In this document: positions 1 to 63,880 of the stretch, one piece after another | How positions within the stretch are numbered: the first letter of the stretch is position 1 | Layout of the letters: the number at the start of each line of letters is the position of its first letter | Translations under genes and position numbers: made by a program | Notes under the pieces: model-generated | What the model saw: only the letters and a program-made list of their open reading frames with translations | Databases searched by the model: none | What the model was told of the DNA's origin: nothing | From: Ginglymostoma cirratum | Lineage: Eukaryota | Assembly (NCBI GenBank): GCA_024137785.1 | Contig: JAHRHZ010000024.1 | Coordinates: forward strand, 1,548,745-1,612,744 | Length of the DNA: 64,000 bases | Direction of reading: 5' to 3'

Positions 1-158
1 TCTTGAGGACGAGTTCAGCTGAGCGGATGAGGGTGTCAGTGTCTTGAGGATGAGTTCAGTAATTTCCGAAGAAGTGTCTCGACCCGAAACGTCAGCGTTC
101 CTGCTCCTCTGATGCTGCTTGGCCTGCTGTGTTCATCCAGCTCTACACCTTGTTATCT
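1..158. mobile_element. Penelope-like element junction: RT fragment (-) abutting a family-A pseudo-LTR (+) with a degenerate hammerhead core
   Basis: 1-60 on the minus strand reads TDTLIRSAELVLK, resembling Penelope RT. 66-158 matches the pLTR repeated across the window (ccgaagaagtgtctcgacccgaaacgtcag...acaccttgttatct). Confidence 0.75.
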
Positions 159-347
159 AAAAGTATTATTGTCATGTTTTTGTTGTTCAAAAGAAAAACC
201 AAAACCCTTAACATAACAAAAATGGACATGAAAAGGTTCTTGTTTGTATGCCAGCGGTCCTGAGTTACCAGTTCTTAGCATGTACAGTTCAAGCATGTAC
301 AAGTCCTATATATTTCAATGTGGCATAACTATTGTTCACTGTTCAAA

Positions 348-505
348 AAGAACATTTAAAAGGCATCTGGATAGGTATAAGAATAGGAGGTGTTTAGAGG
401 AATATGGGCCAAATGGGACTAGATTTATGTAGGATATCTGGTCAGCATGGATGAGTTGGACTGAAAGGTCGGTTTCCGCGCTGCATATCTCTATGACTGT
501 ATGAG
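348..505 (+). mobile_element. CR1 LINE 3' end fragment
   Basis: TFKRHLDRY..RCLEEYGPN matches the CR1 ORF2 C-terminus and is followed by a 3' UTR ending ctctatgact. Similar to 39410-39570 and 27050-27192. Confidence 0.85.
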
Positions 506-2847
506 TAGCTGAATTATTAAGAAAGCCAGACAGAATAACAGATAGCAAGGGAGAATGGGTTAAATACAGACAAGTATAGATTGTTTAAAGAGGGGATTTA
601 GTTGAAGTTCCACTGGTAAATTATAGTGACCCTGGCATGGAACCAACTCCCAAGGGTGGTCTTGTTTACATTTAAAAAGCATAGATCATCATGATGTGCT
701 ATATGTTTTGAGAAATGGACTTGGACTAATTTTGGACTCAATCTAATTTCCAAACATCACCATTGCATTAGATTCATGCCCTGCAAGCTGCTACGATCGA
801 AATATTTGACATATATATTTGCACCATAATGGCTATGTTACAGAGTTTACTTGAGTCAATTTAGCACTGTAAGCCCTATGGCCATGACTAGCAAAAATCA
901 CACCCCTGACCAGGGGTTTCTTATCTGTATTATGCCAAGTCCTTAGAATATAAAAGATAATATGCATTTTTGAGATTTTCCACCCATCTCCTGCGACCAG
1001 TGACAGTAGTAGGGATACTGAAACACCAGTCTGTTCATCCTGCCCTAGCCTGCATGTTTGGAACTGTAAGATCCACAATGTGATGTTTTAACCTCCATCA
1101 GGTTAAAATGTTCTGTTTGGTAGCAAGACTTAATATAGTTGGAGACAAAGGACTAATGCAAAAACAAGATGCAGAAGGTTAATGTAATAGATAGCCTTCA
1201 GTTTCATTCCAAAATGAAAATTTTAACTTGTTTGAAGGAAGTACATGGCCTTGATTACTTAAATTTTGAGACATAACTTCTGAGGTAAATCCAAAATTCT
1301 TATTACCTGAAATATTAACACATTATTGTGGCAGCAAAGTGTTCACTTCACTTTCTAAAAAGGAAAAGCAGCCTTCACATTAATGTAACCCAAGAGATCA
1401 CAGGTAAGAAAGTCTTCTGGCCCATTAGCAATGTGCTCAAGTTGTCTTTACCTTCACATAAATCAAGTGTTGTGAAATACACTGTACGGTGTTATATTCT
1501 CATCTACAATCAATATGTCAAGAAGTAGTTAAATGAATTGACAAATAATTGATATTAGGTTTCTAGCAGACATTATTCTTTGATAGAATCAAGCTATGTC
1601 TGATAAGAAAACCAGCATAGTAAATTGTGTTTATGTGCAGCCACATAAAACTAACCAAAGGTATCCAAAAGATGAAACGAGTGATCTTGTCTGAGAGCCA
1701 GCCTGTGCATATAATAGGGTCGTAATGCTGATATTGATTTCCATTAACAGCAGACATTCCTCACACATGTGGTTTTTGTATGTACATCTATGTGGGTGGT
1801 CTGGAGAGTAAGTGCAGAGAAATGGCTTAGTCCTGGAGAATTAGAGGAAGATGCTATTAGCAGACTTAAGTGTTACTGAATCCGAAAATGCACAAAACAG
1901 ACTTTTTCGATCCTTTCTTTTTAGCAAATGTTTTCATTTTAACTTGCGCTAATCCTTTAAATCATAAAAAAATTCCCATACAACACAGGCTCACTTACTT
2001 TGACAGGGTTAATGTTTCTCCCGTTGGTCTGAGAACAATCATAAACATAATGCTTTTATTATCTTCTTAGAACCACTGAGAGCTCATGGGTCCTTTAGTA
2101 AAGTCCAATGTTAAAAGTTAATATTTTATTGAAAGTTAGATGTATCAAAAATTGTATTCGTGTTTCCTATTGATTTTTAATAAATGTCAAAAGTTGTTAA
2201 AATATAAGAATGTGAGATAAGAAAATTTCATTAAATATGTTCAGGTTCTTATGTCATTTTGGTTTATGTACAGAATTTATTGGAGTGATTCATACAGGAC
2301 CTAGTCTAACTACTTTTTCCCTTGCTTTACAACTCTCTTTTCAACGTTAAATAATGAATTGATATGCTTCTTTTCAAATATTTTAACCAATTCTACACTT
2401 ACTGTACATTAACACTTGCTTAGCAACCTTAAGGCTGTAGTTACACTGTTTCAACACTGGGATCCAAATCTTACTGATGTTTATAGATCTCTGCCTATCT
2501 ATTGTTTAACATCACTCTCTGTGGGCTTTTTTAATGTTAAGAGAGAAGGGCAGCAGCATCTGTTTCCTCTTAACATTAAAACAAAATTGTTCAACATCTT
2601 TAAGGTTCCTAGATACTCCAGTACATTCCCTTAAATCTCTTTGAAATTCAGCTTCACACCAGATTGCAATTAAACACCATCCCGTATAAACATCAAATTA
2701 AGTGAAAGTTCCCACAGAGCACCTAAGGCCTCTTTACTTTTGACATGGAAATGGAAGAATAACTGCAACCTAAATATAAAATGCTAACTTCCTAAATTTC
2801 TCTAGATCCACCTAATAGCCACCGTTTATGTAATGATATAACTCATG

Positions 2848-2969
2848 ATACTGGTGTTGGATGGGGTGGACAAAGTGACTTCACCTGATGAAGGTGCAGC
2901 GCTCCGAAAGCTTGCGATTTCAAATAAACCTGTTGGACTATAACCTGGTGTCATGTGACCTCTGACTTC
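2848..2969 (+). mobile_element. Short Penelope pLTR insertion (family C) with hammerhead core and 12-bp TSD
   Basis: Flanked by atataactcatg at 2836-2847 and 2970-2981. Contains CTGATGA-A-GGTGC-AGC-GCTCC-GAAAGCTT and aataaacctgttggactataacctggtg. Confidence 0.8.
2885..2913 (+). ncRNA. Minimal type I hammerhead ribozyme motif (family C)
   Basis: CUGAUGA, an extra A, stem II GGUGC/GCUCC (one mismatch), GAAA, palindromic AGCU stem III and a CUU cleavage triplet. Confidence 0.65.
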
Positions 2970-3551: not shown

Positions 3552-3902
3552 ATTCCCCGCGAGCTGCTGAGTCCACTTTAATTAATCTAACCACCCGCAT
3601 CTCGAGGATAGATATAACTGCGTTGACACTCACTATTGGTTCAACACGGGGTACTGTTAATCTTTCTTCACTTATTTATTTAATTGTACATAATACATTC
3701 ACACACGTGGATTCCAGCACAATGATATGATGCACAAGTATAAAATAAGTACTCATATAACAGTGACAGGGGCAAGTCTATTCTGACGCATAGCACACAG
3801 TACCCCGTGTTGAACCAATAGTGAGTCTCAACGCAGTTATCTCTATCCTCGAGATGCGGGTGCTTAGATTAATTAAAGTGGACTCAATGGCTCGTGGGGA
3901 AT
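3552..3902. repeat. Unique long inverted repeat: 106-bp arms, 139-bp spacer
   Basis: 3552-3657 is the ungapped reverse complement of 3797-3902 with 7 mismatches by manual alignment. Confidence 0.95.
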
Positions 3903-5946: not shown

Positions 5947-6090
5947 CAATTAGAGTTCTGAAGAATGGTCACTGGACCTGAAAAATTAACTCTGCTTTCT
6001 CTCTGCAGGTGCTGTTTGACCTGCTGAGTTTCTCCAGAAATTTCTATTTTTGTTTCTGATTTCCAGCATCTGCAGTTCTTCGATTATTGA
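5947..6090 (+). mobile_element. Solo Penelope pLTR (family B), degraded hammerhead core, 13-bp TSD
   Basis: ctgaagaatggtcactggacctgaaaa...ccagcatctgcagttct. Flanks taacatctagaag (5934-5946) and taacgtctagaag (6091-6103). Confidence 0.8.
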
Positions 6091-6310
6091 TAACGTCTAG
6101 AAGGATTTTGTTTCTCATTCACTGACTGGACGTGTGTGTCACTGGCCGGACCAACATTTATTGCACATCCCTAGTTGAGCTTGAGAGATAGTTGACCTGT
6201 CTCCTTGAACCACTGCAATCCATTTGGTGTAGGTACAACCACCATGTCATCAGGAAGGGGATTTCAGGATTTTGACCGAGCTACAGTGAAGGGACAGCAA
6301 TATATTTCCA

Positions 6311-6857: not shown

Positions 6858-7176
6858 AGTGTCTATGAGGAATGGTTTGGAAGGGCTTTTGCAGATGATT
6901 GTGTTCCCATGTGTCTGCTGCTCTTGTCCTCCTAGATGCTAATGGTTATGGATTTGAAAGATGCTGTCTAAGGAGCCTCAGTGAATTTCTGCATAGCAGT
7001 ATGTGTCATCTACAAGCTGCAATTACTAATCATTGGTGGTGGAGGAAGTAATGCTTGTGGGTGTGATGCAAATCAAGTGTACGGCTTTGTCCTGGATGGT
7101 GTTAAGCTTCTTGAGTGTTGTTGGAATTGCCCCCATCCAGGCAAGTGGGGAGTATTCCAACATACTCTTGACTTAT

Positions 7177-7416
7177 AAAAACTGAAAGAACTGCAGTTGC
7201 TGTAAATCAGGAACAAAAACAGAAGTTGCTGGAAAAGCTCAGCAGATTTCATCAGCATCTATGAAGAAAAAATCAGAGTTAATGTTTCGGATCTGGTGAC
7301 CCTTCCTCAGAACGTTCTGAGGAAGGGTCACGAGACCCGAAACATTAACTCTGATTTTTTTCTTCACAGATGCTACCAGATCTGCTGAGCTTTTCCAGCA
7401 ACTTCTGTTTATAGAT
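7177..7416. mobile_element. Fold-back Penelope pLTR dimer (family B), hammerhead core on each strand
   Basis: Palindrome centred on cttcctcag-aacgtt-ctgaggaag. Cores at 7281-7310 (-) and 7317-7346 (+). tgacttat is duplicated at 7169-7176 and 7420-7427. Confidence 0.85.
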
Positions 7417-7911: not shown

Positions 7912-8103
7912 AGAGATAGTAGGAACTGCAGATGCTGGAGAATCCGAGATAACAAGATGTAGAGCTGGATGAACACAGCAGGCCAAGCAGCATCAGAGGA
8001 GCAGGAGAGCTTGATGAAGGGTCTAGGCCCGAAACGTCACGCTTTCCTGCTCCTCTGATGCTGCTTGGCCTGCTGTGTTCATCCAGCTTTACACCTTGTT
8101 ATC
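7912..8103. mobile_element. Fold-back Penelope pLTR insertion (family A) with hammerhead core at the hairpin apex
   Basis: Arms at about 7948-8010 and 8041-8103 are complementary. The loop 8011-8038 is ttgatgaagggtctaggcccgaaacgtc. TSD-like ccaccttcctttgt / ccacattcctttgt. Confidence 0.85.
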
Positions 8104-8968
8104 CCACATTCCTTTGTGCTGAATATGACTCCAACAGGCAGAGAGTTTTTCCCTGCTTCCCATTGAGTCTATTTTAGCTCGGGCCGCCTGATGTCGCACA
8201 ATCAGTGAACTCGCTCAGTGAACAACACTCACTTGTTGACAAGGACTGTTACTCTTACCTCACATGCAGCATGAAAATTGTATTTGCTGCTTTCAATATC
8301 CTGAGCAGATAATTTTTATGATGCAGCAAAACGATACTTTCAATCAAAATGTAAATGGTCATGTCATGTTTTGGCATTAATACACTGCTTTGGAGTCAAA
8401 ACCTGCAGTGTTGTGGAGGTACATAATGAGACTGGAATTGGGTCCCATTAATGATCCAGAATGGTGTGTGTGCAGGATATATTCACACTCCTGATATGAA
8501 ACATGCGGGAAATATTGGTGAAGGAAGCAGCAAGTAGGCAGTGAATGGTCTTCAGATGTATACAGAGTAGGCAGATCAAGACATCAATAAGCAGATAACC
8601 AGAATAGCTATACTGGAGCTCCAGTCTATATTCAACATGTCCACCCTCAATGCTATTTTAGAGTTTCCTTAACTACTTACGGGTTTGTTTACTTACTACT
8701 TAAGGTTTGTTCGTTATTCTTGTTCTGGCTGTTTCTATTTTTCAGCTTGCTTTTGTTGAGTTTTGTTTAAAATTTCAAAAGTCTACAGCAGATCACCTTG
8801 AAGGGTTTTCTTATTGACATCGTTGATATGTTTTAATATAAACTGGTTGCTCCCAAATATCCATGCTTGAGGAGGCATCAAGTTTAGAATTGAGCGTGAC
8901 TGGGAAGAGGGAGGAGCAGAAATAAAGATGGACTCTCAGCATCAACAAAGGTAATTCTGATATTTTCG

Positions 8969-15040: not shown

Positions 15041-15285
15041 TCCTACTGAGGCCAGGAAGCACCCGGTTAGCTCATCTGCAAGCCTCTAATTGCATGATAT
15101 AGTTAGAACTGAAGTACCACTATAGAAAATCTCAAACTGGTGAAGCGATACGGGGTTAAATTTCACACTATATTAAAAATATAGTAGAGTGAGAACAATT
15201 TGTCCAAAATAATACAAACTGAAGGGTTCTTGCAACAGTAGGCTTCAGGGGTGCAATGTGTCACCTTGATCATATGGTGTCTAGT

Positions 15286-20461: not shown

Positions 20462-22098
20462 AAGAGTCATAGAGTCATGCAGCACAGAAACAGATTCTTC
20501 AGTCCAACTCGTCTGCACCATCTAGATATCCTAAACTGATCTAAAACCGTTTGCCAGCATTTGGCCCATATCCCTATGAACTCTTTCCAATTCACATACC
20601 CATCCAGATGCCTTTTAGATGTTGTAATTGTACCAGCCTCCACCACTTTGTCTGGCAGCTCGTTCCATACACTCGCCACCTTCTGTGTGAAAACATTGCT
20701 CCTCAGGTCCATTCTAATTTGTTTCCCTTCTCACCTTAAACCTATGCCAGCTAGTTTTGGAGATAAAAGGTACTGCAGATGCTGGAGAATCCGAGATAAC
20801 AAGGTGTGGGGCTGGATGAACACAGCAGGCCAAGCAGCATCATAGGAGCAGGAAAGCTTGACGTTTCAGGCCTCGACCCTTCATCAGAAATGCTGCTTGG
20901 CCTGCTGTGTTCATCCAGCCCCACACCTTGTTATCCCAGCTAGTTTTGGACTTTCCTACCTTGGGAAAAAGACCTTGATGATTCACATTATCCATGTCTC
21001 TCATGATTTTATAAACCTCTACAAGATCTGTAGAAACCTCAGCCTCTGACACTCCAGGGAAAAATGCCCCAGCCTTTTCAGCCTCTTTCTACAGCTCAAA
21101 CCGTCCAATCCTGCAATATCTTTATAAATCTTTTCTGAAACTTCAAGTTTAACAATGGCTTTTCTATAGGAGGGAGACCAGAATTAAATGCAGTGTTCTA
21201 AAAGTGGCCTCATCAATGTCCTGTACAGCCGCAACATGACCTCCCAACTCCTATACTTAATGCAATGACCAATGAAGGCAAGTATGCCAAATGCCTTCTT
21301 CACCACCCTGTCTACCTGTGACTCCAATTTCAAGGAACTATGGACCTCCACTGACAGGTCTCTTTGTTCTGCAACACTCCCCAGGACCTTACCATTAAGT
21401 GTACAATTCCTACCCTGTTTTGCTTTACCAAAATTCAACACTTCGCATTTATCTAAATTAAGTTCCATCTGCCATTCCTTGGCCCATTGACCTATCTGAT
21501 CAAAGTTCTGTTGTACTCTGGGATAACCTTCCTCACTATCTAGTACGCCACCAATGTTGGTGTTATCTGCAAACTTACTAAGCATACCTCCTATATTCAG
21601 ATCCAAGTCATTTATATAAATGACAAAAATCTGTTGACCCAGCACTGATCCTTGCGGCACACTGCTAGTCACAGGCCTTCAGGCTGAAAGACAACCCTCT
21701 ACCACTACCTTCTGATTCCTATCTTCTAGCCAATTTTGTATCCAGTTGGCTAGTACCCCCTGGATTCCATGTGATCTAACCTTGCAAACCAGAGTACCAT
21801 GCAGAACCTTGTTGAACACCTTGCTGAAGTCCATACGGACATGTAACACTCTGCCTTCATCAATCTTCTTCATCACCGCTTCAAAAAACTCAATCATACT
21901 GATGAGATGTGATTTCCCATGCACAGAGCCATGTTGACTATCTCTAATCAGTCTTTGCCTTTCCAACTGCATGTCAATCCTGTCCCTCAGAATCCCCTCC
22001 AACCTCTTACGCACCACTGACATCAGACTCACTGGCCTATAGCTCTCTGGCATTTCCTTACCACCTTCCTTAAATAACAGCACCACGTTAGCCACCCT
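20462..22098 (-). mobile_element. CR1 LINE, 5'-truncated, frameshifted RT
   Basis: Minus ORFs read ANVVLLFK..YRPVSLMSVV..MDFSKVFNKVLH, VPQGSVLG..YINDLD..KFADNT and RSNVFTQKVASVWNELP. The tail lies at 20462-20480. Confidence 0.95.
20762..20935. mobile_element. 174-bp fold-back Penelope pLTR insertion (family A) with perfect 15-bp TSD
   Basis: ccagctagttttgga at 20747-20761 and 20936-20950. Full pLTR on minus (core 20860-20887) followed by an inverted partial copy at 20890-20935. Confidence 0.9.
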
Positions 22099-23264: not shown

Positions 23265-23392
23265 GAGATAGCAAGAACTGCCAATGCTGGAGTCAGTGAC
23301 AATACAGTGTGGAGCTGGAAGAACACAGCAGGTCAGGCATCATCAGAGGAGTAGGCATGCCAACGTTTCAGGTCGGGATCCTTCTTCAGAAT
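23265..23392 (-). mobile_element. Solo Penelope pLTR (family A variant)
   Basis: Minus strand reads ctgaagaaggatcccgacctgaaacgttgg...ctgatgatgcctgacctgctgtgttcttccagctcc. Confidence 0.75.
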
Positions 23393-23808: not shown

Positions 23809-23877
23809 TTGGAATCTAAGGGATGAAAGCAGAGTTACCGTTTCACGTCTGGTGACTCTTCATCAGAACTCCAGTGG

Positions 23878-24928
23878 AAGAATGGAATCTTTTCCTGCTC
23901 CAAAACACTTCAGTTTAAAACTAGAGGCTTACATAGTGCATATGTGTAGTCGATGACTTCCTGAATTTTAGGGAATCCCGTTGCAAACTAATTGCTCGGA
24001 AACCATAAGATATAGGGGCAGAAGCAGACCATTCTGACAAAGGGTCACCGGACTCGAAACATTAAATCTAATTTCTTCCCCCAGATGCTGTCAGATCTGC
24101 TGAGTTTCTCCAGCTATTTCTGTTTTGTTTCAAATGCCTAACGTCTGCTGTTGTTTATTTTATTTCATATTTGAGAGGATTGGATACAGTTTATAAATTT
24201 TCTGATGGATCCACAGTAACGGAAGGTAAGATGTATGGAACGTGTGCTGAAGCCAAAAACTCACTTCAGTTATACACAGACAGTATTACTTCCACATACA
24301 GGGCACAAACCTAGAAGCCTCTGGTACATTCTTGGTTTCCCAATTCCCTTCATGACTGCTGAGCTTGACTGCCTGACACAATTGTTGATGGCAACAGCTA
24401 GTCTCGCATGATTGTCAGATTGTGAAACATGCAGTAAATCATCATAAGCCTGGAGAACTCCTTGGTTTTGCACGACAGAGCACCTCCTAACAGATTTAAG
24501 CAAGTAAAATCTAAATGAGGAGCCCAGTGACTTTTCTCGTGACTGAGCGTCTCTCACAGTGAGTGCTCAGTTGGTATCCGGAATTTTTGTAGGGATGGCC
24601 TGAATCATGGCAGAGGATAATCCCTCTCAACTAGTAACCAGTCATGCAGTGAGGCCCAAAGGTCCCTGGGATAGTGACTGCCTCTTTACAAATACATAGA
24701 GATAGCTCCATGGATAGCAGGTTTTCAGCTGTATGAAATATTGCCAGCGGCTACATGAGCTACGCACTGAAAGAATAGAATCTTTTCCTGTTACACAACC
24801 CTTGAGTTTAAAATTAGAAGCTTACACGGTACATATGTGCAGTCAATGATTCCCTGAACTTCAGGGAATTCTGCTGCAAACTAAATGCTAGCAGAACATG
24901 AGACTTAGAGTCAGAAGTAGGCCATTCA
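23878..24928 (+). repeat. Diverged direct repeat of about 155 bp (23878-24034 and 24772-24928)
   Basis: gaat.gaatcttttcctg...gtttaaaa.taga.gcttaca...catatgtg.agtc.atga...gcaaactaa.tgct...cagaag.ag.ccattc is present twice. Confidence 0.85.
24034..24160 (+). mobile_element. Solo Penelope pLTR (family B); another partial copy on minus at 23826-23870
   Basis: ctgacaaagggtcaccggactcgaaacatt...cagatgctgtcagatctgctgagtttctccagc. Confidence 0.75.
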
Positions 24929-33900: not shown

Positions 33901-34395
33901 TATTAGTCTCAAATGAAAAATGAAAAATACCTTTTCCAGGGAATCAAGAAAGGGTGCAGAGGTGAAGCTGTTGAATCTAGAGTTTCTTGCTATAACAGGG
34001 AATTAATGCTGGTGCTAACTACCTTGAACACCTCCTTTCTTTATTTTCCTGTTTTGTGCAGCAATATTTTACAATTTGGATTAATCTTTAACCTTATAGT
34101 CAAATATTTGAGATGTAAACATGCATATTTAAAGTTTTTTTCTGAAAGATAGCCTAGAATGAACTGCCATATTTAAGTGGATAAAGTAACAGTAAATAAA
34201 TTTTAGAAATCAAAGATGTGACAAACAGATATAAAGAACTAATGGCATGATGCAATAGGTTCTGGTTAGCACATAAACTAGACACTAGGCGTGGCTTGCT
34301 GTGTGGGATAGAAAACATCCAGCTTGACAGAGCTAAGATAACAAGGGCTGGATGAACACAGCAGGCCAAGCAGCATCATAGGAGCAGGAAAGCTT

Positions 34396-34423
34396 GACGT
34401 TTCGGGCCTAGACCCTTCATCAG
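34396..34423 (-). ncRNA. Intact minimal hammerhead ribozyme motif (family A)
   Basis: Minus strand: CUGAUGA-A-GGGU-CUAG-GCCC-GAAACGUC. Palindromic ACGU stem III and GUC cleavage triplet. Confidence 0.75.
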
Positions 34424-34492
34424 AAATAGGGGAGGGGAAGAGGGTTCTGAAATAAATAGGGAGAGAGGGGGAGGCGGATAGAGGATGGATAG

Positions 34493-34788
34493 AGGAGAGG
34501 ATAGGTGGAGAGGAGGCAGACAAGTCGAAGAGGCGGGGATGGAGCCAGTAAAGGTGAGTGTAGGTGGGGGGTAGGGAGGGGATAGGTCAGTCCAGGGAGG
34601 ACGGACAGGTCAAGGGGGCGGGATGATGTTAGTAGATAGGAGAGGATAGGTGGAGAGGAGGCAGACAAGTCGAAGAGGCGGGGATGGAGCCAGTAAAGGT
34701 GAGTGTAGGTGGGGGGTAGGGAGGGGATAGGTCAGTCCAGGGAGGACGGACAGGTCAAGGGGGCGGGATGATGTTAGTAGATAGGAGA
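34493..34788 (+). repeat. Identical tandem duplication, 145-bp unit, G-rich
   Basis: The unit starting aggagaggataggtgg at 34493 recurs at 34638. Confidence 0.9.
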
Positions 34789-34960
34789 TGGGGGTGGGGC
34801 TTGAGGTGGGAGGAGGGGATAGGTGAGAGGAAGGACAGGTTAGGGAGGCGGAGATGAGCTGGGCCACAGTGATGCCACCCGAAGGCTGCAGGAACAGCAA
34901 ATCATATTCAGCCTGGGAACCCTGCAGCCCAATGGTATCAATGTGGATTTCACAAGCTTC

Positions 34961-35360
34961 NNNNNNNNNNNNNNNNNNNNNNNNNNNNNNNNNNNNNNNN
35001 NNNNNNNNNNNNNNNNNNNNNNNNNNNNNNNNNNNNNNNNNNNNNNNNNNNNNNNNNNNNNNNNNNNNNNNNNNNNNNNNNNNNNNNNNNNNNNNNNNNN
35101 NNNNNNNNNNNNNNNNNNNNNNNNNNNNNNNNNNNNNNNNNNNNNNNNNNNNNNNNNNNNNNNNNNNNNNNNNNNNNNNNNNNNNNNNNNNNNNNNNNNN
35201 NNNNNNNNNNNNNNNNNNNNNNNNNNNNNNNNNNNNNNNNNNNNNNNNNNNNNNNNNNNNNNNNNNNNNNNNNNNNNNNNNNNNNNNNNNNNNNNNNNNN
35301 NNNNNNNNNNNNNNNNNNNNNNNNNNNNNNNNNNNNNNNNNNNNNNNNNNNNNNNNNNNN
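34961..35360. other. Assembly gap (400 N)
   Basis: Run of n. Confidence 1.
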
Positions 35361-35477
35361 TTTCCTGCTCCTATGATGCTGCTTGGCCTGCTGTGTTCAT
35401 CCAGCCCCACACCTTGTTATCTCGGATTCTCCAGCATCTGCAGTACCTTTTATCTCTGATACAAGCTTGACAGGCCT

Positions 35478-36375: not shown

Positions 36376-36593
36376 CTTATCAAAGGGTTAAATGCGTTTA
36401 TACTCACCTTTTGTGATCTACATTGTACATAATTTCATTAGTAGGAAACACAATGGTTTAGTTGAGGTGGATAATGGGTGAAAAGTCCCATGGGTGATTT
36501 ATTGATAAAACAAATGTTCAGTTGCTTGTAAGAGCACATCAGGTAATTTTTTTAAAAAAACACCTTGGAATTTAGCTGTGGCTGATATACTCT

Positions 36594-36673
36594 GGGCCCA
36601 AAACGTCAGCTTTCCTGCTCCTCTGATGCTGCTTGGCCTGCTCTGTTCATCCAGCTCTACACCTTGTTATCTC
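36594..36673 (+). mobile_element. Truncated Penelope pLTR (family A)
   Basis: gggcccaaaacgtcagctttcctgctcc...ttatctc, flanked by tactct on both sides. Confidence 0.8.
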
Positions 36674-37334: not shown

Positions 37335-37490
37335 TCATCACAAAGGCTTTTGCGGATCTGGAAGCATCTGTGGAGAGACAGAAACAGAGTTAACATTTTG
37401 ACGAGTAACTTAGACCTGCTGAATTTCTCCAGCAATTTCTGTTTTTGTTTCAGATTTCCAGCATCTGCAATTCTTAGCTTTATTTTAGTT
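37335..37490. mobile_element. Degraded fold-back pLTR (family B)
   Basis: Minus part gcatctgtggagagacagaaacagagttaacatttt joined to plus part agacctgctgaatttctccagcaatttctg. Confidence 0.7.
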
Positions 37491-38277: not shown

Positions 38278-39570
38278 GCCATAAGAAATGGGAACAGGAG
38301 TAGGTCATTAGGCCCCTTGAGCCTACTCTGGCATTCAATAGGATTGTGGCTGATCCCACATTCCTCACGTGAGACTGATCAAGAACCTATCCATCTCATC
38401 CTTTAAAATAGACACGGCCCGGTCCCCACAGCTCCATGTGGCAAGGACTCCTGAAGACCCATAAAAACAGAAAGAGCTGTGGATGCTGTAAATCAGTAAC
38501 AAAAACAAAGTTGCTGGAAAAGCTCAGCAGGTCTGGCAGCATCTGTGAAGAGAAATCAGGGTTAACGTTTTGGGTCCGATGACCCTTCCTCAGAACGGAT
38601 GTTAGCTAGGAAAAGGTTGGTTTATATGCAAAAGATAGGGTGGGGGAGGGGGTAAGGAGTACACAATAGATGGGGGTAGAGGCCAAAGAGAGAAAATGGC
38701 TGCTAATTGCCTTTGCCCTTCATTATGTGGCCATATTAATTGTCTCAAAGGGTGGTGAACCTTTACCAGCCCAGAGTGAGGTGGATGCTGGGACATTGAG
38801 CAAGTTTAAGGAGGAGACAGACAGATTCTTAGTTAGTAATGGATTACAGGGTTAGGGAAAGGGGACAGGATAGTGGAACTGAGACTGAGATGAGCTCAGC
38901 CATGATCATATCAAACGGCACAGCAGATTTGATGGCCTGAATTGCCTATTCCTGCTTTTAAATAAAAACCCTCAAAGAACTGCGGATGCTGTAAATCAGA
39001 AGCAAAAACCGAAATTGCTGGAAAGGCTCAGCGGCTCTGGCAGCACCCCTGGAGAGAAATCAGAGTTAACGTTTCAGGGTCGAATGACCCTTCCTCAGAA
39101 CTCCCTGAACTTTTCCAGCAATTTCTGTTTTTCATTCTGATTTACAGCATTTAAGGTGAGAGGGGAAAGGTACAAAAGGGACCTAAACAACCTTTTCACG
39201 TAGAGGGTACCACGTGTAAGGAATGAAAACAAAGTTCTGAGGAAGGGTCACTGGACCCGTAACATTAACTCTGTTTTCTCCTCCACAGATGCTGCGAGAC
39301 CTGCTGAGCTTTTCCAGCAACTTTGTTTTTGTTCCTGATTTACAGCACCATCAGTTCTTTTGGCTTTTACATGTAAGGAATGAGCTGCCAGAGGAAGTGG
39401 TGGAGGCTGGTACAATTACAACATTTAAAAGGCATCTGGATGGATACGTGAATAGGAAGGGTTTAAGAGGGAAATGGGTCAAATACTGGCAAATGGGACT
39501 AGATTTATTTAGGATGGCATGGAGTGAAGAGTTTGATTTCATGCTATCCAACTCTATGACTCTATATGAT
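38278..39570. mobile_element. Cluster of CR1 3' ends (38278-38460 -, 38745-38960 +, 39150-39570 +) and family-B pLTRs (38462-38700 -, 38965-39150, 39227-39371 +)
   Basis: CR1 motif NELPEEVVEAGTITTFKRHLDGY. pLTR cores at 38564-38593 (-), 39068-39098 (-) and 39237-39266 (+). TSD tgtaaggaatga at 39215-39226 and 39372-39383. Confidence 0.85.
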
Positions 39571-40525: not shown

Positions 40526-40584
40526 GTTTTTTTTTAAAGAACATGGGTTCTGGAGTTTGAATTGCGTCAAATATTTCGTTATAA

Positions 40585-40752
40585 GTAACCAAAACAGAAA
40601 TTGCTTGAAAAACTCAGCAAGTCTGAGGAAGGGTCACTCGACCCGAAACGTTAACTCTGATTTCTCTTCACAGATGCTGCCAGATCTGCTGAACTTTTCT
40701 AGCAATTGTTAATTTTGTTTCTGACTTACAGCATCCGCAGTTTCGGTTTTTA
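40585..40752. mobile_element. Fold-back pLTR (family B)
   Basis: aaaacagaaattgcttgaaaaactcagca (inverted piece) followed by a full plus-strand pLTR. Confidence 0.8.
40623..40652 (+). ncRNA. Intact minimal hammerhead ribozyme motif (family B)
   Basis: CUGAGGA-A-GGGUC-ACUC-GACCC-GAAACGUU: perfect 5-bp stem II, ACGU palindrome, GUU triplet. Confidence 0.75.
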
Positions 40753-41310
40753 TTCGGTAATAAATTTCTCGTTATTACCTTCATTAAGGGGCACATTCAT
40801 ACCGGACAGCAGATAAATCTACCTGACACCTTTATTCTATGCTTCGATTTGGAGCTGAATTTGGTTGTGTTTGAGAGGGATTTTTGTTTTTGGTCATTTA
40901 CTGACTTTTTACATTTATCTACACTATATTTCTGAGGTATCCTTACCTCCCCACTATCCCCCAACCTCCACTTCTCACTGGGGTTCAAACAGTATCGGTA
41001 AGTCTGCACAACAGATGGAGAATTGTCGGATAAGGTAAGCTAGTCCCCCAATACTTAAACATTCATAACTCTTATGGAAATGCGCTTGTATCGGGCCTAA
41101 GCCCGCACCCCCATTAATCGTGACATTCTGAGGATTGTGAATTGGAGTTTATTGAACCTGATGTTGATATCCATTCCTGGCTGATGAAAGAAACAATGAG
41201 TTATACAGAGCTTTTTCAAGTTTGAATTGTATAGTTTCCTATACAATATTTTACTATGTCTTCTGCTCTCTCGTTGTCTTAATGGATCTCAAACAAGTTT
41301 CCACTTTACT

Positions 41311-41457
41311 AGATAACAAGGTGTAGAGCTGGATGAACACAGCAGGCCAAGCAACATCAGAGGAGCAGGAAAGCTGACGTTTCGAGTCGGGACCCTTCAG
41401 AAGTTTCGTCCAGCTCTACACCTTGTTATTCTCAGACTTCAGCATCGGCAGTTCCTG
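41311..41457. mobile_element. Fold-back pLTR (family A)
   Basis: ataacaaggtgtagagctgga ... tccagctctacaccttgttat arms, with a partly deleted core on minus. Confidence 0.8.
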
Positions 41458-41787: not shown

Positions 41788-41882
41788 CAAAAAACCCAAA
41801 TTGCTGGAAAAGCTCAGTAGGTCTGGCAGCATCTGTGGAGAGAAATCAGAGTTAACGTTTCGGGGCCAGTGACCCTTCCTCG
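41788..41882 (-). mobile_element. Partial pLTR (family B)
   Basis: ttgctggaaaagctcag...gagttaacgtttcggggccagtgacccttcctc. Confidence 0.8.
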
Positions 41883-42464
41883 CCAATATTGAAGGAAATT
41901 GTGGGTTTGGAAGACTGGGAAGGGAAATGCCTGGTTTTGAGAGAGAAAAGGGATAGTGCCTCAAAGTAAGAAAATGAGGGTTTTAATAGACGTGTCAGTG
42001 CTATCCAAATGTGTCCATCTCAGGGTATTGGCAGGCAAAGTCACTTTTGTGTTTAAACTGTTGAATTCACTGATCACTTCAAGCACTCCTGAGAGACCTA
42101 TATCCTTTGTGATGTACAGAAGGGAGGGCTGCTTGAGACTGCACGTTCAGCTGTATCCCACTCAATGAATCCTGGACTTTCACATTCCATTTCATTTAAA
42201 GTGCTTTTCTACAAAAGGAACATCCCAAACTCCTCAGTGGCCACGATCAGGTGTATTCCACGAGGTGAGCCAATACATTAAACTCTCTCTAAGCTTGTCC
42301 CAACATATGAAGATGATGCATACTCATTTGAATTGAGTGAAACCAATTTAATTTGAAATATTTTTACAAATGAAATTAATTTTGTCATATGCCTTTGACT
42401 CCTTTGTGCTCTCTGGACTTGAACAGAGAAGTTGTGGCTATGCACGGCTTCCTTAATGGGCTGA

Positions 42465-42617
42465 AAACAAAAAAAAAGCTGGAGATCACAACCTAAAGAG
42501 TCATCTAGACTTGAAACATTAGCTTGCTTTCTCTCCGTGGATGCTGTCTGACCCATTGTGATCTCCAGCATTTTTTTTCTTGTTTTCGGTGCAGATTCCA
42601 GCATCTGCAGTAATTGC
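42465..42617. mobile_element. Fold-back pLTR (family D), 15-bp TSD
   Basis: tccttaatgggctga (42450-42464) and tccttaatgagctga (42618-42632). Body homologous to 63746-63875. Confidence 0.8.
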
Positions 42618-45600
42618 TCCTTAATGAGCTGATTGGTGAGGCAGCATGATCAGCTGTTGCTTTTCGTCAATGAAAATCTTACTCTGCTCAATTTAACCTG
42701 TTTTTCGTGCATAGCCACTACCTCTTAGGGTTTTAATTTAATTGTACTGGAAACAGGAACGAGAAGAGGGTATTTATATGCAGCTCTGATTAAAATGTCA
42801 GACTGTTGACTAAGTCACAGTGGATTGGCTATCACAGTCTGGTAGGAGGCTTGTTTTGTTGAATTTAATTCTGGTTCAGTGTATTCCATATGAAAGGATA
42901 TGGTTCACCGAACATGTTTGATAATGGCCATTTATCACATGTATAGAATAAGTCGTTCTAACAGACAAATCCACATAGTGTGACAAAAAGTGACATGAAG
43001 ACATTAATGAGATTCTACATATTGGCAATAAAATCAGGAGAGCAGCTTGAAACAAAATGATGCCCAAACCAGCAAATCTTACTGCCTTCCTAAAATTATA
43101 ACAACCCAATAACATACAACTTGATGAGCCCTTGATTGCTGATACCTATCAAGCTCAGACTACAAAAGCTGCAGTATCTTTTAATACAACACAGATATGT
43201 AACATGAATCCCCAACTGTGCTGTGCAATATATTTTGAATGATGACTTGAGGCAGTATGTCTTTAATGCTTTTAGACTAAGTGCAATGCATTACAGACAA
43301 TTGAGCCCCATAGAAAGCAGAGGATTACATATGTTGATATCTTCTGAAATGTGTAACTGAATTACTTAAAGCTGAAAGACTTAAAAAAAACCCCTGCAAT
43401 TCTTAAAGGTAATGTATCATTGGACAACACGTGTGGAAAGTGATCAATCAAACTCGACAGCCAACTAAAGATTGTGTTCCTATCCTTGGGGGTATGGGAG
43501 GAACATTGAGGAAGAGTTGATGCTGCCAGAAATTCAATTTGGATGTTTCTAATCTCATGAAAATTATACCATTCTCTCAATCTCTCTCTACCTCTAAGAC
43601 AGCTCCATAAACTTTATTCGAGGCACCTTTTATCCTTCAGCCAATTTATATATTTTTACTGGTGTAAGAATTGTTGGCACTTTTATGAAGTTAAAAGTGT
43701 TTAAATAAAAGGACACCTTTAGGCTCATCTCCTATTGTCTCAACCCAATACCTAAAGGTGTAAATGTATTACCAACTTGGTAATACGTTTGTGGAGGAAA
43801 AGATTTGAATTTGTGAGTGATCAACTTCTTACTTTTGTTCTTCTATCTATAGCACATGTTTCACAAATAGATATTGTTTCAAACAAAAAATAGTACACAA
43901 GCTATAGCTTAAGGAAGAACTAATTAATTTTGAAGTTGCAAGACTGGATCCTGATTCTTTCATATTTTAAATAGAATGTTATTGATAGTCTTAGCTACTG
44001 AGGTGAAATTTGCAAAAGCTGTCAAATATGTGCAGAGTTTTCAGGACACATTGTTGGATGTGGATTGGCCTAAAGCTTCCTTTGCTTAGTAAAAGCTTTT
44101 AATAGGTTTTATTTTCAGCTTTAGTTGTAGAATCAACCAAGCAAGAAAAAAAAAACCCAAGGAGGAGCTTTGTAATTGTAATAAGGTTTGTGTGGCTGAA
44201 GTGTGCATTGTACTGTATGATCCCTTCACTCGTTCCAGCCATAGAGATTTCCATACTTGGTATAGAAGTTACTTCTGCAACTATAAACCAAATGGAAAGT
44301 GTTAGCAATCTTTGTAATGTCTTTAATCTTGAATTATTGATGCACATGTTAGCTCCTGGGTAATTCAGACTTCAGGAAATACTAGTTTATTAAATTAGAG
44401 AGAGAATCAGTTATTTCCAAGAGATTATCAATTTTGAGGTCTGCAGTACGAATGCCTCAAAGAATATTGAGATTTGTTTGCAGAATAAAGTCTAAACTCA
44501 TTGGAAAGCAAAGCAGACCACGCAGCTTGAGGAATAGAGGACCAAGAAAAGCAGAGCTTGAGAAGGGGAAATTACTAAAACACAATAATGGGATGAAGAG
44601 GATGCAGCAGACTGCATTTTCCAGTCGCAACTCTTATTACAATCATGCAGCTCTTCAGGATTTCCCTTTTTTTAAACCAGCTTTATCGTAATAGAAGCCT
44701 TTACAAGAAATTCCACCTCTGTTGAGGAGATTTCACACCAATTCATATCTAGCAACCTGTTCTGAAAACCCTGCGCATGTTTTGATAGCTGGTACAAATA
44801 CCCCTCCAATGCCAACAAGCCACAACATTCTTCTACAACCTTTTATTACAAAGAATAAAAAGGTCACTTAAAATTTATTCCATTGTCCTTCATTAATGAA
44901 TCCTGAAAATTCCAAAATTCTGAATTGTGTATTCAACAGTAACAAATCAGTTTTTCCCAGGGCCATATCTGTATGAAGTTTTATTAAAATCTGTCCATTA
45001 ATTTTGTGATTCCTTACAGATCAATACATTAATGAGTGAAAGACATTATCCCCAATGGCCTACAGTGGGACAAGTAACCAATATTTCAGTCAAGGGGACA
45101 TTTGTTATTTGTATCAGCAGATAGGTCCAGTGTAAAATTAAATTTAAGTGTTAAATTCCAAAGAAACAAACAAAGCAAGTTGATTTCCAGCATTGTGTAA
45201 CTCCAAGCATGTCAAAGATAAGATGGTCTAACTGTATGCATTACTGTTAGCATAAATAATTCTTGTCCATGATTTTTTGTGGCTTGGGTTTCAATTTGAT
45301 CAGGAATGAACCTTTTTTAATATTTGTGTGCTGACATGCATGATGAAAGTACAACTGAGTAAATTTTTGTTTTTATTACCTGCTTTGCGTTTTCTGATTT
45401 ATTCTCTAGTCTTTCCAGCAAAAGTTATTTGGTGGATAAAGATAGAGGAAGCCATATTTCTGCCAAGCCACTTAATAGGCACACAACTTACAAATCATGA
45501 TCAAGCTTGCATATGTAATAAATTTCATTTGGTATTACTGTGTGGTCACAAAATTACAAGTAATTCAACTGTAGATAAGCAGTGCAGTTCAGGAGCCTGT

Positions 45601-54551: not shown

Positions 54552-54860
54552 CTTAGCATGGCCAATCCACCTAATCTGCGCATCTTTGGACTGTGGGAGG
54601 AAACACACACAGACACAGGGAGAATGTGCAAACTCCACACAGACAGTTGCCTGAGGTTGGAATCAAACCTAGGTCCCTAGTGTTGTGAGGTAGCACTGCT
54701 AACCACTGAGCCACCGTGCCAGTAATTCTGGAACAAAAACAAGTTGCTGGAAAAGCTCAGCAGGTCTGGCAGCGTCTGTGGAGAGAAATCAGAGTTAACG
54801 CTTCAGGTTGAGTGACCCTTCCTCAGAATTATCTCCACAGAAGCTGCCAGACCTGGCAAG
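54552..54860 (-). mobile_element. HE1 SINE 5' half (54552-54721) next to a family-B pLTR (54730-54860)
   Basis: SINE head ggcacggtggctcagtggttagcagtgct on minus; pLTR gttgctggaaaagctcag...gacccttcctcagaa. Confidence 0.85.
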
Positions 54861-55417: not shown

Positions 55418-55578
55418 GTAAAAACCGAAAGAACTGCCGATGATTTAAATCGGGAACAAAAACAGAAGTTGCAGTTCTGAGGAAGGGCCACCAGACTCGA
55501 AACGTTAACTTCTGTTGTTTCTTTCACAGATGCTGCCAAACCTTCCGAGCTTTTCCCGCAATTTCTGTTTTTGTTTCA
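55418..55578. mobile_element. Fold-back pLTR (family B)
   Basis: An inverted piece gaacaaaaacagaagttgc precedes the core ctgaggaagggccaccagactcgaaacgtt (55477-55506). Confidence 0.8.
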
Positions 55579-56983: not shown

Positions 56984-57410
56984 AGAATCATAGAATCCCC
57001 ACAGTGCACATAGAGACTGTTCAGCCGATTGAATCTGCACCGAACCTCCAAAGATCATCCCACCCAGACCCACACCCCACTTCCCCACCCTATCCCTGTA
57101 ACGCTGCACTTCCCACGACTGATCCACCTAGTGTGCACATCCCTGAATACAATGGACAAGTTAGCATGGCCAATCCACCTAGGCTGCACATCTTTGGACT
57201 GTGGGAGGAAACCAGAGCAACCAGAGGGAACACTTGGAGAACATGCAAACTCCACACAGTCATTCACAACTGCGAGTTCTGAGGTAGGGTAACACAACCC
57301 GAAATGTTAACTCTGATTTCTCTCCACAGATGCTACCAGACTTACTGAGGTTCTCCAGCAATTTCTATTTTTATTTTGTTTCTGATTTACAGCATCTGCT
57401 GTTCTTTTGG
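56984..57410. mobile_element. HE1 SINE (-, 56984-57262) truncated next to a family-B pLTR (+, 57274-57410)
   Basis: SINE tail and V-domain on minus, then ttctgaggtagggtaacacaacccgaaatgttaactctgatttc. Confidence 0.85.
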
Positions 57411-58089: not shown

Positions 58090-59329
58090 AGATAACAAGG
58101 TGTAGAGCTGGATGAGCACAGCAGGCCAAGCAGCATCAGAGGAGCAGGAAAGCTGACGTATCGGATCTGGACCCTTCTTCAGAAAAGGGGGAGGGGAAGG
58201 GGGCTCTGAAATAAATAGAGAGAGAGGGGGAGGCGGATGGAAGAAGGATAGAGGAGCAGATAGGTGGAGAGGAGAAGGACAGGTCAAAGAGGTGGGGATG
58301 GATCCCGTAAAGGTGAGTGTAGGTGGGGAGTTGGGGTGGGAGTTGGTCAGTCAAGGGAAGACGGACAGGTCAAGGAGGTAGAGATGTGGCTGGTAGGTAG
58401 GAGGTGGGGGTGGGTGTTGGTCATTGAGGTGAGATGAGCGGATAGGTGGGAGAAAAGACGTACAGGTCAAGGAGGTGGGAATGCGCTGGGCTGGTTTTGG
58501 GGTGAGGTTGGAGGCGGGGAGATTTTGAAACTTGTGAAGTCCACACTGAGACCATTGGGCTGCAGGGTTCCCAAGCGAAATATGAGGTGCTGTTCCTGCA
58601 ACCTTCGGGTGGCCTCGTTGTGGCACTGGATGGACATGTTGTCCAAGGAGTGGGAGGGGAATTTGAAGTGGTTCGTGACTGGTAGGTGCAGTCATTTGTC
58701 ATGAACCAAGCGCAGGTGTTCCACAAAGCAGTCTCCGAGCCTCCGCTTGGTTTCCCCGATGTAGAGGAGGCCACATCGGGAACAGCGGATACAGTATACC
58801 AGTTGGGAACCCTGCAGCCCAATGGTCTCAGTGTGGACTTCACAAGTTTCAAAATCTCCCCACCCTCGACCTCATCCCAAAACCAGCCCAGCTCGTCCCC
58901 GACTCCTTGACATGTATTTCTTTTCTCCCACCTATCCGCTCCTCTCACCTCAATGACCAACACCCACCTCCACCCCCACCTCCTACCTACCAGCCTCATC
59001 CCCACCTCCTTGACCTGTCTGTCTTCCCTTGACTAACCAACTCCCATCCTAACTCCCCACCTACACTCACCTTTACTGGCTCCATCCCCGCCTCCTTGAC
59101 CTGTCCGTCTCCTCTCCACCTATCTGCTCCTTTATCCATCTTCCATCCGCCTCCTCCTCTCTCTCTATTTATTTCAGAGCCCCCTTCCCCTCCCCAGTTC
59201 TGAAGAAGGGTCCAGACCCGAAACATCAGCTTTCCTGCTCCTCTGATGCTGCTTGGCCTGCTGCGTAATTCCAGCTCTACACCTGGTTTTTTTAGATTCT
59301 GCAGCATCGGCAGTTCCTACTATCTCTTG
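58090..59329. mobile_element. Inverted (tails-out) Penelope insertion with GIY-YIG endonuclease remnant, about 490-bp arms, 14-bp TSD
   Basis: Minus 58799-58515 reads VYCIRCSRCGLLYIGETKRRLGDCFVEHLR...EQHLIFRLGTLQPNGLSVDF with one stop. Arms 58090-58574 and 58803-59290. aagtcatataaatg (58076-58089) / aagtcaaataaatg (59330-59343). Confidence 0.92.
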
Positions 59330-61901: not shown

Positions 61902-62152
61902 CGTGGTGGCTCAGTGGTTAGCACTGCTGCCTCACAGCACCAGGAACCCAGGTTTGATTCCACCATCGGGCATCTGTGTGCAGTTTGCACGTTCTCCCCG
62001 TGCTTGTGTGGGCTTCCTCCCACATCCAAAGATGTGCAGGTTAGGTGGATTAGCCATGGAAATTCAGGGATAGGGTCGGGGTTCTTTTTGGACAGTCGGT
62101 GTGGACTCGATGGGCTGAATGGCCTGCTTCCATACTGTAGGGATTCCATGAA
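61902..62152 (+). mobile_element. HE1-type V-SINE with internal deletion
   Basis: gtggctcagtggttagcactgctgcctcacag...ccatactgtagggattccatga. Confidence 0.9.
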
Positions 62153-62865
62153 AGAGTAAGCAATGTTGAATAAAGGCAGCTATGACTACGGGGTTAAGAG
62201 GGCCAAGATCAAACAGTTCAGTTGGACTGAATGGTTTGGTTTGTTTCTGGATTGTCTATTATTTTCAATGAATTACAGAAATAAGTTGAACACATTTTCC
62301 TTGACTTTCATTCGAGAACGAAGCAATTGTTTTAAAAAGCAATTGAAATAATGAAGTGAAGCTGTATTGTTCAGAATAACAGGCTGTGAGACAAGGAACA
62401 AAACTGGGGATTCACATACACAAAGCTAATTATTTGCTTGACCAAGGAAAAAAACGGTGGGCTAGTCAAGAACATTTTTCATCCGTGCTTTCACCTTAAG
62501 CACAACTTGTGAGGGTCACCTGTAGAACTGGCTGTCAAATCAATCTCCCTTGACAATTCCACAGAAAATGATCCCCTTCAATAGCCGTGTACCTTAAGGA
62601 CAGTGCTGTATCAACTTATTGATCTTAACCTTTTTAATGATGCCTGCTTTAGTTATGGTGACTATCCATTTGCCTCCTAAATGTACAGATTCAGGCCAAT
62701 GTGCAGTTAAAGCTTAGATCACCTTTCTCCATCTGTGAGCCTACTCAGCTAGCAATATGAGGATATTTCCATTTGAGATACCACCACTATGTCAAGCTTG
62801 ATTTTGCAGTCCTTTATTGTGAAAACTGTGTGATGTGTAGCCAAATGGGCCACATCTGGGAGCTG

Positions 62866-62960
62866 AGACAACACAGTGTGAAGCTGGAGGAACACAGCAG
62901 GCCAGGCAGCATCAGAGGAGCAAGAAAGTTGATGTTTTGGGTCGGGACTATCTCTGGGAA
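62866..62960 (-). mobile_element. Partial pLTR (family A variant)
   Basis: gctggaggaacacagcaggccaggcagcatcagaggagcaagaaagttgatgttttgggtcgggac. Confidence 0.75.
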
Positions 62961-63649
62961 TGGAGTCCCATCTTTTGTATAGTTCCAGGGATGTGGGTGT
63001 AAGGCTCACATTTTAGTCCTCGTTGCTGGCTAGCGGAACTTCTGAGGGCAATTAAGAACCAATCACACGAGACCTGAAGTGATGTACAGGCCAACAGACA
63101 GTAAGGATGGCTGGTTTTCTTCCAGAAAATACACGGATGAATCAGATGGGGTTTTTTTTAAAACCGATCAAGCAAGTCAGGAATAAAGCAACTTTGGAAT
63201 TTGAACTGATGCCACAGCTGACGCTTTGGAGCTAAAAGCTCCAGTTATTGCTGTTTCTTCACCACACAAATCTGGCACGAGATAATGTTTCAAAATAATG
63301 CTTTTGGCTGTTGACGTGTGGTGGAGGAGGCGTATCAGCTATTTTCAGGTTCATTGTTGATTTTGATTTCTCCGTGTAGTTGCCATGATTCTACAAGCCT
63401 TTACTGAGTCAAATTGTTCAGCATTGCAAAGGTCTACAATGTGTCAGGTGCTGAAGGTCATGGGTGTGATCCTCGAAGGTCTCACACAAACTAGTTGCTC
63501 CAAGGCACAGATGTAATGGGAGAAATTCCACTCCTCCTTGGATTACAACATAACTGGGAGAGAATGAATCTAACACTATAGATACATATTTTTTAAGCTA
63601 ATTAAGGGATATGGGTCAAAGGTAGGTATGTGCATTTAGGCCGCAGATC

Positions 63650-63880
63650 TGCAAACACAAAATGCTAGAAATCATAATGGGTCAGGCAGCATTTGTGGAG
63701 AGACTGCAAGCTAATGTTTCGAGTCTAGGGGACTCTTCATCAGAACTGATGAAGAAGTCCTCATCTAGACTTCAAATGTTAGCTTGCTCTCTCTCCACAA
63801 ATGCTGCCTGACCCATTGTGATCTCCAGCATTTGTTGCTTTCAGTACAGATTCCAGCACCTGCAGCCATTTGCTCATACG
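63650..63880. mobile_element. Fold-back pLTR dimer (family D) inserted in a CR1 3' UTR (63590-63960 +)
   Basis: Centre cttcatcag-aa-ctgatgaag. Minus core 63713-63743 with stem II GAGTC/GACTC. TSD-like ttaggccgcagatc (63636-63649) / ttaggccactgatc (63881-63894). Confidence 0.85.

Follow-up and report, generated by a model that had tools for sequence, protein, structure and literature searches.

The 64,000-nt window analyzed here (contig JAHRHZ010000024.1 of the Ginglymostoma cirratum assembly) carries short dispersed repeats in four families, A to D, that contain minimal hammerhead ribozyme motifs. These motifs are almost certainly minimal type I hammerheads lying in the end-pieces of 5'-truncated, endonuclease-bearing Penelope-like elements (PLEs). 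In total, 24 core-bearing arms are present (family A, 8; family B, 13; family C, 1; family D, 2), in keeping with an initial annotation of the window that had put the number at about 25 cores in four or more families, and at least 14 further arms of the same families begin downstream of the first core box. Most copies are decayed stubs of 95 to 135 bp without an open reading frame (ORF), and many are two-armed insertions in which two copies meet head to head. The insertions are listed below; positions such as -4 are counted relative to C3 of the hammerhead, and tails lie downstream of the core.

66..93, +, family A core; U4 mutated; stub start about 4 nt before the core; short tail ending near 159
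2885..2913, +, family C core; one stem II mismatch; stem III AGCT; 12-bp target duplication
5958..5987, +, decayed family B core; stub starts at -4, with G at -5; long tail
7175..7413, family B insertion of two head-to-head arms; long-tailed core at 7281-7310 (-) and short-tailed core at 7317-7346 (+), stem III of each showing CpG decay; duplication of 8 bp
7913..8105, family A insertion of two arms; short-tailed core at 8011-8038 (+) that has lost C3; second arm inverted and long-tailed; duplication of 9 bp
20760..20941, family A insertion of two arms; long-tailed, intact core at 20860-20887 (-); second arm inverted and short; duplication of 15 bp
23362..23389, -, family A variant core; boxes intact; one stem II mismatch; helix I of 2 bp; long tail
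23837..23866, -, family B core; cleavage triplet lost; tail diverged
24034..24063, +, decayed family B core
34331..35457, family A insertion of two arms that spans an assembly gap; short-tailed, intact core at 34396-34423 (-), upstream region retained; C-terminus of the endonuclease at 34865-34960 (+); long tail at 35361-35457 (+); duplication of 10 bp
36584..36673, +, family A arm; begins inside stem II; short tail
37342..37485, family B-like insertion of two arms, neither with a core
38461..38700, -, family B copy retaining its upstream region; G12 mutated in the core (38564-38593); TATA-like box at 38621-38626; long tail
38962..39150, family B insertion of two arms; core at 39068-39098 (-) with intact boxes and an extra stem II base; second arm inverted, its tail partial
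39237..39266, +, decayed family B core; long tail; 12-bp duplication
40581..40753, family B insertion of two arms; core at 40623-40652 (+) intact in its boxes and in stems II and III, with helix I reduced to 1 bp; second arm inverted and short
41310..41456, family A insertion of two arms; short-tailed core at 41376-41403 (-) with damage in the first box; second arm inverted and long
41854..41883, -, family B core; C3/U4 lost
42475..42619, two-armed family D insertion without the first core box; long and short tail; 9-bp duplication
54797..54826, -, decayed family B core; short tail; upstream, a short piece in inverted orientation
55419..55578, family B insertion of two arms; core at 55477-55506 (+) with intact boxes and a helix I of 4 bp; second arm inverted and long
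57279..57308, +, decayed family B core; G at -5; long tail
58090..59327, largest insertion, a head-to-head 5'-truncated family A element; left arm (-) with endonuclease, pyrimidine-rich region of about 340 nt, core 58155-58182 and short tail; right arm (+) with last codons, the same pyrimidine-rich region, TATA-like box 59166-59172, core 59200-59227 and long tail
58521..58802, -, broken C-terminal GIY-YIG endonuclease of a PLE; one stop and one in-frame deletion
62861..62954, -, family A variant arm; begins inside stem II; short tail
63649..63875, family D insertion of two arms; short-tailed core at 63713-63743 (-) and long-tailed, decayed core at 63746-63781 (+); duplication of 7 bp

Hammerhead motifs and their parent elements

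The motifs were sought with a plain pattern and with a scored, relaxed descriptor, and five block-wise dinucleotide shuffles of the window served as the control. At a descriptor score of at least 4 there were 21 matches, compared with a shuffle mean of 0.2, and at a score of 3 there were 8, compared with 2.2 in the shuffles. The score-3 matches at 41376-41403 (-) and 63746-63781 (+) were admitted through their homology to the families, as was a further copy at 41854-41883 (-); those at 9890, 18719, 22622, 35832, 59168, and 60077 were discarded as chance matches, being without family homology and near the shuffle rate. The motifs that the initial annotation had quoted, at 34396-34423 (-), 40623-40652 (+), 63713-63743 (-), and 2885-2913 (+), were recovered exactly, coordinates and strands alike.

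The window motif, CTGA(T/A/G)GA-A-stem II-GAAA-CGT/GCT-H, fits the consensus published for metazoan PLE minimal hammerheads, CUGANGAH-G..C-GAAA-palindrome-UH (Cervera and de la Pena 2014, PMC4209133). The extra A after A9 is invariant in all 23 aligned rows, and stem III is a 4-nt palindrome (ACGT in families A, B, and D, AGCT in family C), both as first proposed. Decay has left its mark on the individual copies: both core boxes are exact in 13 of the 24, and also in the majority sequences of families A and B, the G10.1-C11.1 pair closing helix II is present in 17, the stem III palindrome is kept in 15, and the UH is kept in 23. Eight of the nine broken palindromes are explained by CpG-type transitions. 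Helix I has 0 to 7 consecutive pairs, mostly 2 to 4, and is open, giving a type I topology. All elements (boxes, stem II, and stem III) survive in 7 of the 24 copies, and in 4 of these helix I is 3 bp or longer; the copy at 40623-40652 (+), which had been put forward for cleavage assays, has a helix I of only 1 bp. Rfam returned no hammerhead family among nine matches at E≤5, all nine being weak hairpin look-alikes below the gathering score, a miss that would be expected for motifs without helix III. A tRNA search of the window found none.

The link to PLEs, which the initial annotation had proposed on the strength of the motif, is made physically by family A. Its core lies about 340 nt downstream of the end of a GIY-YIG endonuclease (58155-58802), and the association of endonuclease and core recurs at 34396-34960. 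The peptide of 58521-58802 has 31 relatives and shows 77% identity to P0002, a whale-shark reverse transcriptase (RT)-endonuclease protein, 59% to a protein of Mobula, and 54% to one of Leucoraja, relatives that point to a shark. The GIY-YIG profile matched the window endonuclease piece with an E value of 0.017 over 36 amino acids, below the Pfam cut-off; the corresponding domain of P0002 passes that cut-off (23.2 versus 22.6 bits), and ahead of its endonuclease P0002 also shows an RVT_1 match that falls below cut-off. A related arrangement is found in a metagenome contig (L001:1-1298), which contains the 3' half of a related RT-endonuclease ORF (encoding a protein with about 44% identity to P0002) and, after it, an intact hammerhead. 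The order endonuclease end, spacer, hammerhead is common to this contig and family A, and the stem II of L001 equals that of the shark families. It was the only locus recovered by a pattern scan of metagenomes for the motif. A second, more diverged PLE endonuclease fragment lies at 14862-15044 (-), 40 to 48% identical to shark proteins; no hammerhead was found downstream of it, and it is possibly the ORF of another family.

P0002, P0020, and L001 show a Cx4Cx2C linker motif, which marks Neptune and Nematis elements (Craig et al. 2021, PMC8557442); in the window copies, the corresponding region is truncated away. Judging from these relatives, the parent elements likely belong to the Neptune clade. 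Because tblastn found no PLE RT in the 64-kb window, this placement is by proxy, through P0002.

We aligned 23 rows related by descent, 22 window copies plus L001, to examine pairing. Paired cells make up 83% overall, compared with 76% in shuffles and at most 52% with the partners slid; by helix, the figures are 92% for stem II and 74% for helix I. The initial annotation had described stem II as covarying. Its pairing is indeed kept, but two-sided changes affect only two of the four pairs, each in one sequence (A-U for G-C in family D and G-C for U-A in family C), and the stem III swap is likewise confined to a single sequence. With so few two-sided changes among related rows, covariation lends modest support. 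The accompanying claim that the repeat bodies are dissimilar holds for family C alone, which is unalignable, whereas the tails of families A, B, and D are homologous (z of 8.2, 6.9, and 15.1 against shuffles). The tails of C and L001 compared with A or B give z below 0.5, and D compared with L001 gives 2.3; upstream of the core, families A, B, and L001 do not align. Across these flanks the core is identical in the majority sequences of A and B, in C, in D, and in L001. Thus, the outcome that the initial annotation had named as damaging to its reading, a core no better conserved than its flanks, is the reverse of what we see, and conservation of the core across unrelated flanks is stronger support than covariation. 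Predicted folding of whole stubs is no better than that of shuffles (z from -0.45 to -0.90).

Insertion anatomy and a candidate RNA start

Thirteen insertions are two-armed. A pair of one long and one short tail is present in 10 of the 13 at a fixed threshold and in 11 by eye, in a test that took in neither family C (one copy) nor an 11-nt inverted piece at 39237. Target duplications of 7 to 15 bp flank many insertions, those of 7 to 8 bp being short enough to arise by chance, and the junction between the arms differs from locus to locus. There are four tandem arrays in the window, all without a core, and no head-to-tail tandem unit with a hammerhead was found. Insertions of endonuclease-bearing (EN+) PLEs are characterized by 5' truncation, an inverted adjacent copy, a one-sided tail, and a target duplication (PMC8557442; Arkhipova et al. 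2013, PMC3846280), and all of these features are seen in the window. In the Poseidon element of Anolis carolinensis, PAc, both DNA strands are extended, two internal RNA sites of RT start define the tail, and ribozyme cleavage is not needed for insertion (Frangieh et al. 2024, PMC11167929). The two arms may therefore represent two cDNAs (complementary DNAs) primed from two cut ends; self-priming on an antisense template, which PMC3846280 prefers, is also compatible with the data.

Some loci have further peculiarities. In the family C insertion, a stretch of about 30 nt (2849-2880) separates the left target duplication from the core; no other window sequence accounts for it, and it may be an inverted tail piece. 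Beside a 400-N gap, the upstream region of family A contains two 100% identical 145-bp copies (34493-34788), which may reflect a local duplication or an assembly effect. At 39063-39271 and 23832-24068, family B cores lie head to head about 140 to 165 bp apart, with unrelated sequence between them.

By our reading of the core-bearing arms, 18 of 24 begin between -5 and +1 and 4 extend upstream, the remaining 2 boundaries being unclear; the 14 arms that start at +10 to +85 predict 1.3 starts in such a 7-nt interval. A similar boundary appears in public contigs from three organisms (4 runs per family; contig counts are not copy numbers). These results concern the joints and loose ends listed, besides which a further 153 and 209 joints and 1573 and 1356 loose ends exist. 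For family A, the largest listed loose end falls at 59198 in 4/4 runs (752, 981, 43, and 179 contigs), with mixed flanks (agreement 0.36 to 0.38). For family B, the six loose ends listed include one at 38596 in 4/4 runs (1158, 1144, 1479, and 290 contigs; agreement 0.33 to 0.36), and of the 12 opposite-strand joints listed, 11 have 38593-38596 on one side. In both references the next base up departs from the majority, so the true start would lie at or just beyond -4.

Upstream of this boundary, the sole match to TATAWAW (with at most one mismatch) in the 340 nt preceding the family A core sits at -30/-31 (chance about 0.005), and the only two matches in the 105 nt preceding the family B core, which overlap, sit at -31/-29 (chance about 0.028). 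The bases around -4 may resemble an initiator. In addition, four of the six short family B arms that keep AGTT have a non-native G at -5, as a copied cap would give. From these positions, we lean toward the reading that element RNA would start at -4 and that the stubs would be run-off copies of its uncut 5' end.

The cut site itself leaves little trace. None of the 14 downstream-starting arms begins within 2 nt of it, and listed opposite-strand joints begin 3 to 4 nt (family A) or 4 to 24 nt (family B) downstream. A cleavage footprint of a few percent may be compatible with the listed joints and loose ends. A listed family A loose end at the cut site, 59228 (run X18, 33 contigs), was rejected as a cleavage footprint and attributed to an alignment effect of an AAGC variant, since its loose consensus is the core itself.

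Taken as a whole, the material is probably best explained by PLE end-piece hammerheads whose stubs are run-off products and are inert in host transcripts. In such a scheme, a polymerase II promoter would start RNA at the A four bases before C3, and the hammerhead would occupy the first 32 to 34 nt of the transcript. The element protein would nick both DNA strands and start reverse transcription at two internal sites, about 93 to 100 and 128 to 133 nt downstream of C3; one or two cDNAs would run to the RNA 5' end or stop earlier and would then be joined head to head, and longer copies would arise by priming in the downstream end-repeat. Selection on the ribozyme would act in the active parent, and cleavage there would depend on a second copy or on the element protein; once inserted, the stubs would lack the TATA-like box and would decay. 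A bolder and rather doubtful extension is that the hammerhead forms the first 32 to 34 nt of a TATA/initiator-driven capped RNA, making the stubs the PLE counterpart of retroviral strong-stop DNA; cutting of only the downstream hammerhead would leave those 32 to 34 nt at both RNA ends, and the run-off cDNA would jump there. If true, the ribozyme would be the maker of the element's R region, the terminal redundancy for strand transfer, which would account for nearly all PLEs keeping the hammerhead though it is dispensable for priming in vitro.

Several observations weigh against this scheme. Three of the 13 two-armed insertions do not fit the long-plus-short pattern at the fixed threshold, no evident duplication was found at three of six loci in one check, and within the window only family A, and not B, C, or D, is tied to an ORF. 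The arms were initially picked by having a core, so the share of arms that include it is inflated. The TATA test is post hoc and rests on two families with shared tail ancestry, and in L001 no TATA-like box occurs at this distance. Family B loose ends mostly carry the native C at -5 rather than a cap-derived G, and the candidate start site is read from DNA alone. Nor is neutrality after insertion cleanly supported: mismatches are more frequent in the core than in the tail in family A (5/77 versus 15/428) and less frequent in family B (8/143 versus 104/769). Because the two families conflict and the copies were picked by their core, these rates neither show nor exclude selection after insertion.

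The fixed boundary could have other origins. It coincides with the 5' strand of helix I, and the extra G at -5 of four family B stubs adds one pair to that helix, as might be expected if RT halted or switched template at the base of helix I, or if the cDNA folded back, and no RNA started there; palindromic junctions have been read as self-priming (PMC3846280). We regard such a structural stop as possible but not probable, given that most copies have a helix I of only 2 to 4 bp, which RT would reach once it had already passed the more stable stem II, and that two families with unalignable upstream regions both carry a TATA-like box at the spacing of a promoter. In Drosophila virilis Penelope, an intron end maps to the 5' end of helix I, and the pyrimidine-rich tract before the core, with AG at -4/-3 in family B, would suit a splice acceptor, the stubs then being copies of spliced RNA. 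However, the family B stubs retain the AG (six short AGTT arms, and the first loose letter in 4/4 runs), the family A majority at -3 is T and not G, and no common upstream exon is seen in the stubs, which makes this account most improbable. The stubs might instead constitute a self-propagating non-autonomous family, similar to SINEs (short interspersed nuclear elements) or retrozymes, transcribed and recopied as units by PLE proteins. Their very high abundance (52,091 to 104,892 contigs per run in the five largest runs), the presence of both RT start sites inside the stubs, the mobilization in trans of sequence from the pseudo-long terminal repeat (pLTR) alone, and the tandem retrozymes reported in one chondrichthyan (Li, Clavereau, and Pollet 2026, bioRxiv 10.64898/2026.07.22.740005) would all fit. 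The window's lack of a hammerhead-bearing head-to-tail unit, its locus-specific arm junctions, and the missing TATA-like box of the stubs speak against it, and we consider it unlikely.

Whether intact copies might cut host pre-mRNA, as the initial annotation had suggested, bears on the other half of the scheme. The seven copies that keep core, stem II, and stem III, four of them with at least 3 bp of helix I as well, could in principle do so, and retrozymes are reported to be depleted from Xenopus introns (bioRxiv 10.64898/2026.07.22.740005). Nevertheless, our data lend the idea no support. Core-bearing arms number 12 on each strand, with 3 intact copies on + and 4 on -, the motifs are solo, and the closest intact pair on the same strand is 2.5 kb apart. 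No host exon was identified: Pfam searches of 138 of the 367 non-repeat ORFs of at least 48 amino acids gave nothing above a curated cut-off, and a crude exon scan of the window gave 12 unconvincing candidates. A solo minimal hammerhead showed no detectable cleavage in vitro (PMC4209133), and the Anolis motif needs the element protein and leaves no RNA ends at the cut site (PMC11167929). In the monomer fold predicted for 34396-34423, the cleavage triplet is taken up in pairing with the first core box, and the alternative is a dimer through the near-palindromic stem II. Because of this in vitro inactivity, the protein requirement in Anolis, the wide spacing of intact copies, and the unfavorable predicted folds, cutting of host pre-mRNA is very unlikely, and solo stubs are likely inert in host RNA. 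A non-repeated segment at 12159-12945 contains overlapping open frames of 110 to 165 codons and a plausible acceptor/donor pair (12331-12619, +), with no Pfam match.

Known systems and neighboring repeats

The class to which these motifs belong is already known, PLE minimal hammerheads having been described from fishes, the coelacanth, frogs, and reptiles. The window motifs share with those of PMC4209133 the core boxes, the extra base after A9, G10.1-C11.1, the palindromic 15.2-16.2, and a short helix I, together with an organization into several families, thousands of solo copies per genome, and close opposite-strand pairs. Among the differences, stem II of the window motifs is 5 bp, supplement file 2 of that study has no shark, skate, or Callorhinchus entry, and its accessible text does not describe a fixed 5' start or TATA spacing like that of the window stubs. 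The window copies, known from sequence alone, can also be compared with PAc (PMC11167929), whose two tail lengths correspond to two RT start sites, which extends both DNA strands, which can insert in vitro without its hammerhead, and for which uncut RNA is the main template. PAc differs in belonging to the Poseidon clade, in an ORF that starts within the hammerhead, and in RT starts 111 to 118 nt into the ORF.

EN+ PLEs, the Neptune clade among them (PMC8557442 and PMC3846280), have the same 5' truncation, inverted adjacent copy, one-end tail of 30 to 40 bp, target duplications of 8 to 10 bp, putative TATA and initiator in the pLTR, and C-terminal GIY-YIG domain. A Zn-finger-like linker is seen in the closest homologue. 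The window differs in that most insertions are reduced to 95 to 250 bp, without an ORF, and in that the clade is assigned by proxy. Non-LTR retrozymes (bioRxiv 10.64898/2026.07.22.740005) are likewise non-coding, PLE-derived, equipped with a type I hammerhead, and reported from one chondrichthyan genome, but they are defined as head-to-tail tandem units, of which the window has none. Our literature search found no paper on these shark families, although supplements and Repbase or Dfam entries could hold them, including the chondrichthyan families of the retrozyme preprint. What the hammerhead does in PLE transposition is described as still open (PMC8557442 and PMC11167929), and the value of the shark families is mechanistic: their abundant stubs record where cDNA starts and stops, making models of start sites and strand transfer testable.

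Other repeats also occur in the window. An abundant, SINE-like dispersed repeat without a hammerhead occurs at 8964-9154, 26740-27030, 29415-29754, 46977-47328, 53134-53439, 54550-54730, 56987-57267, and 61904-62154, and several hammerhead stubs directly abut its copies (at 54.7 kb and 57.3 kb). RT fragments of the long interspersed nuclear element (LINE) type, unrelated to the hammerhead families, lie at 21184-22107 (-), 6196-6765 (+), and 7688-7909 (-); RVT_1 is above cut-off at 21.2 to 22.1 kb and weak at 7.7 to 7.9 kb, and the segment at 6.2 to 6.8 kb resembles a LINE C-terminus by eye. Finally, a 106-bp inverted repeat, 3552-3657 / 3797-3902, likewise unrelated to these families, has arms that are 93% complementary and 139 bp apart.

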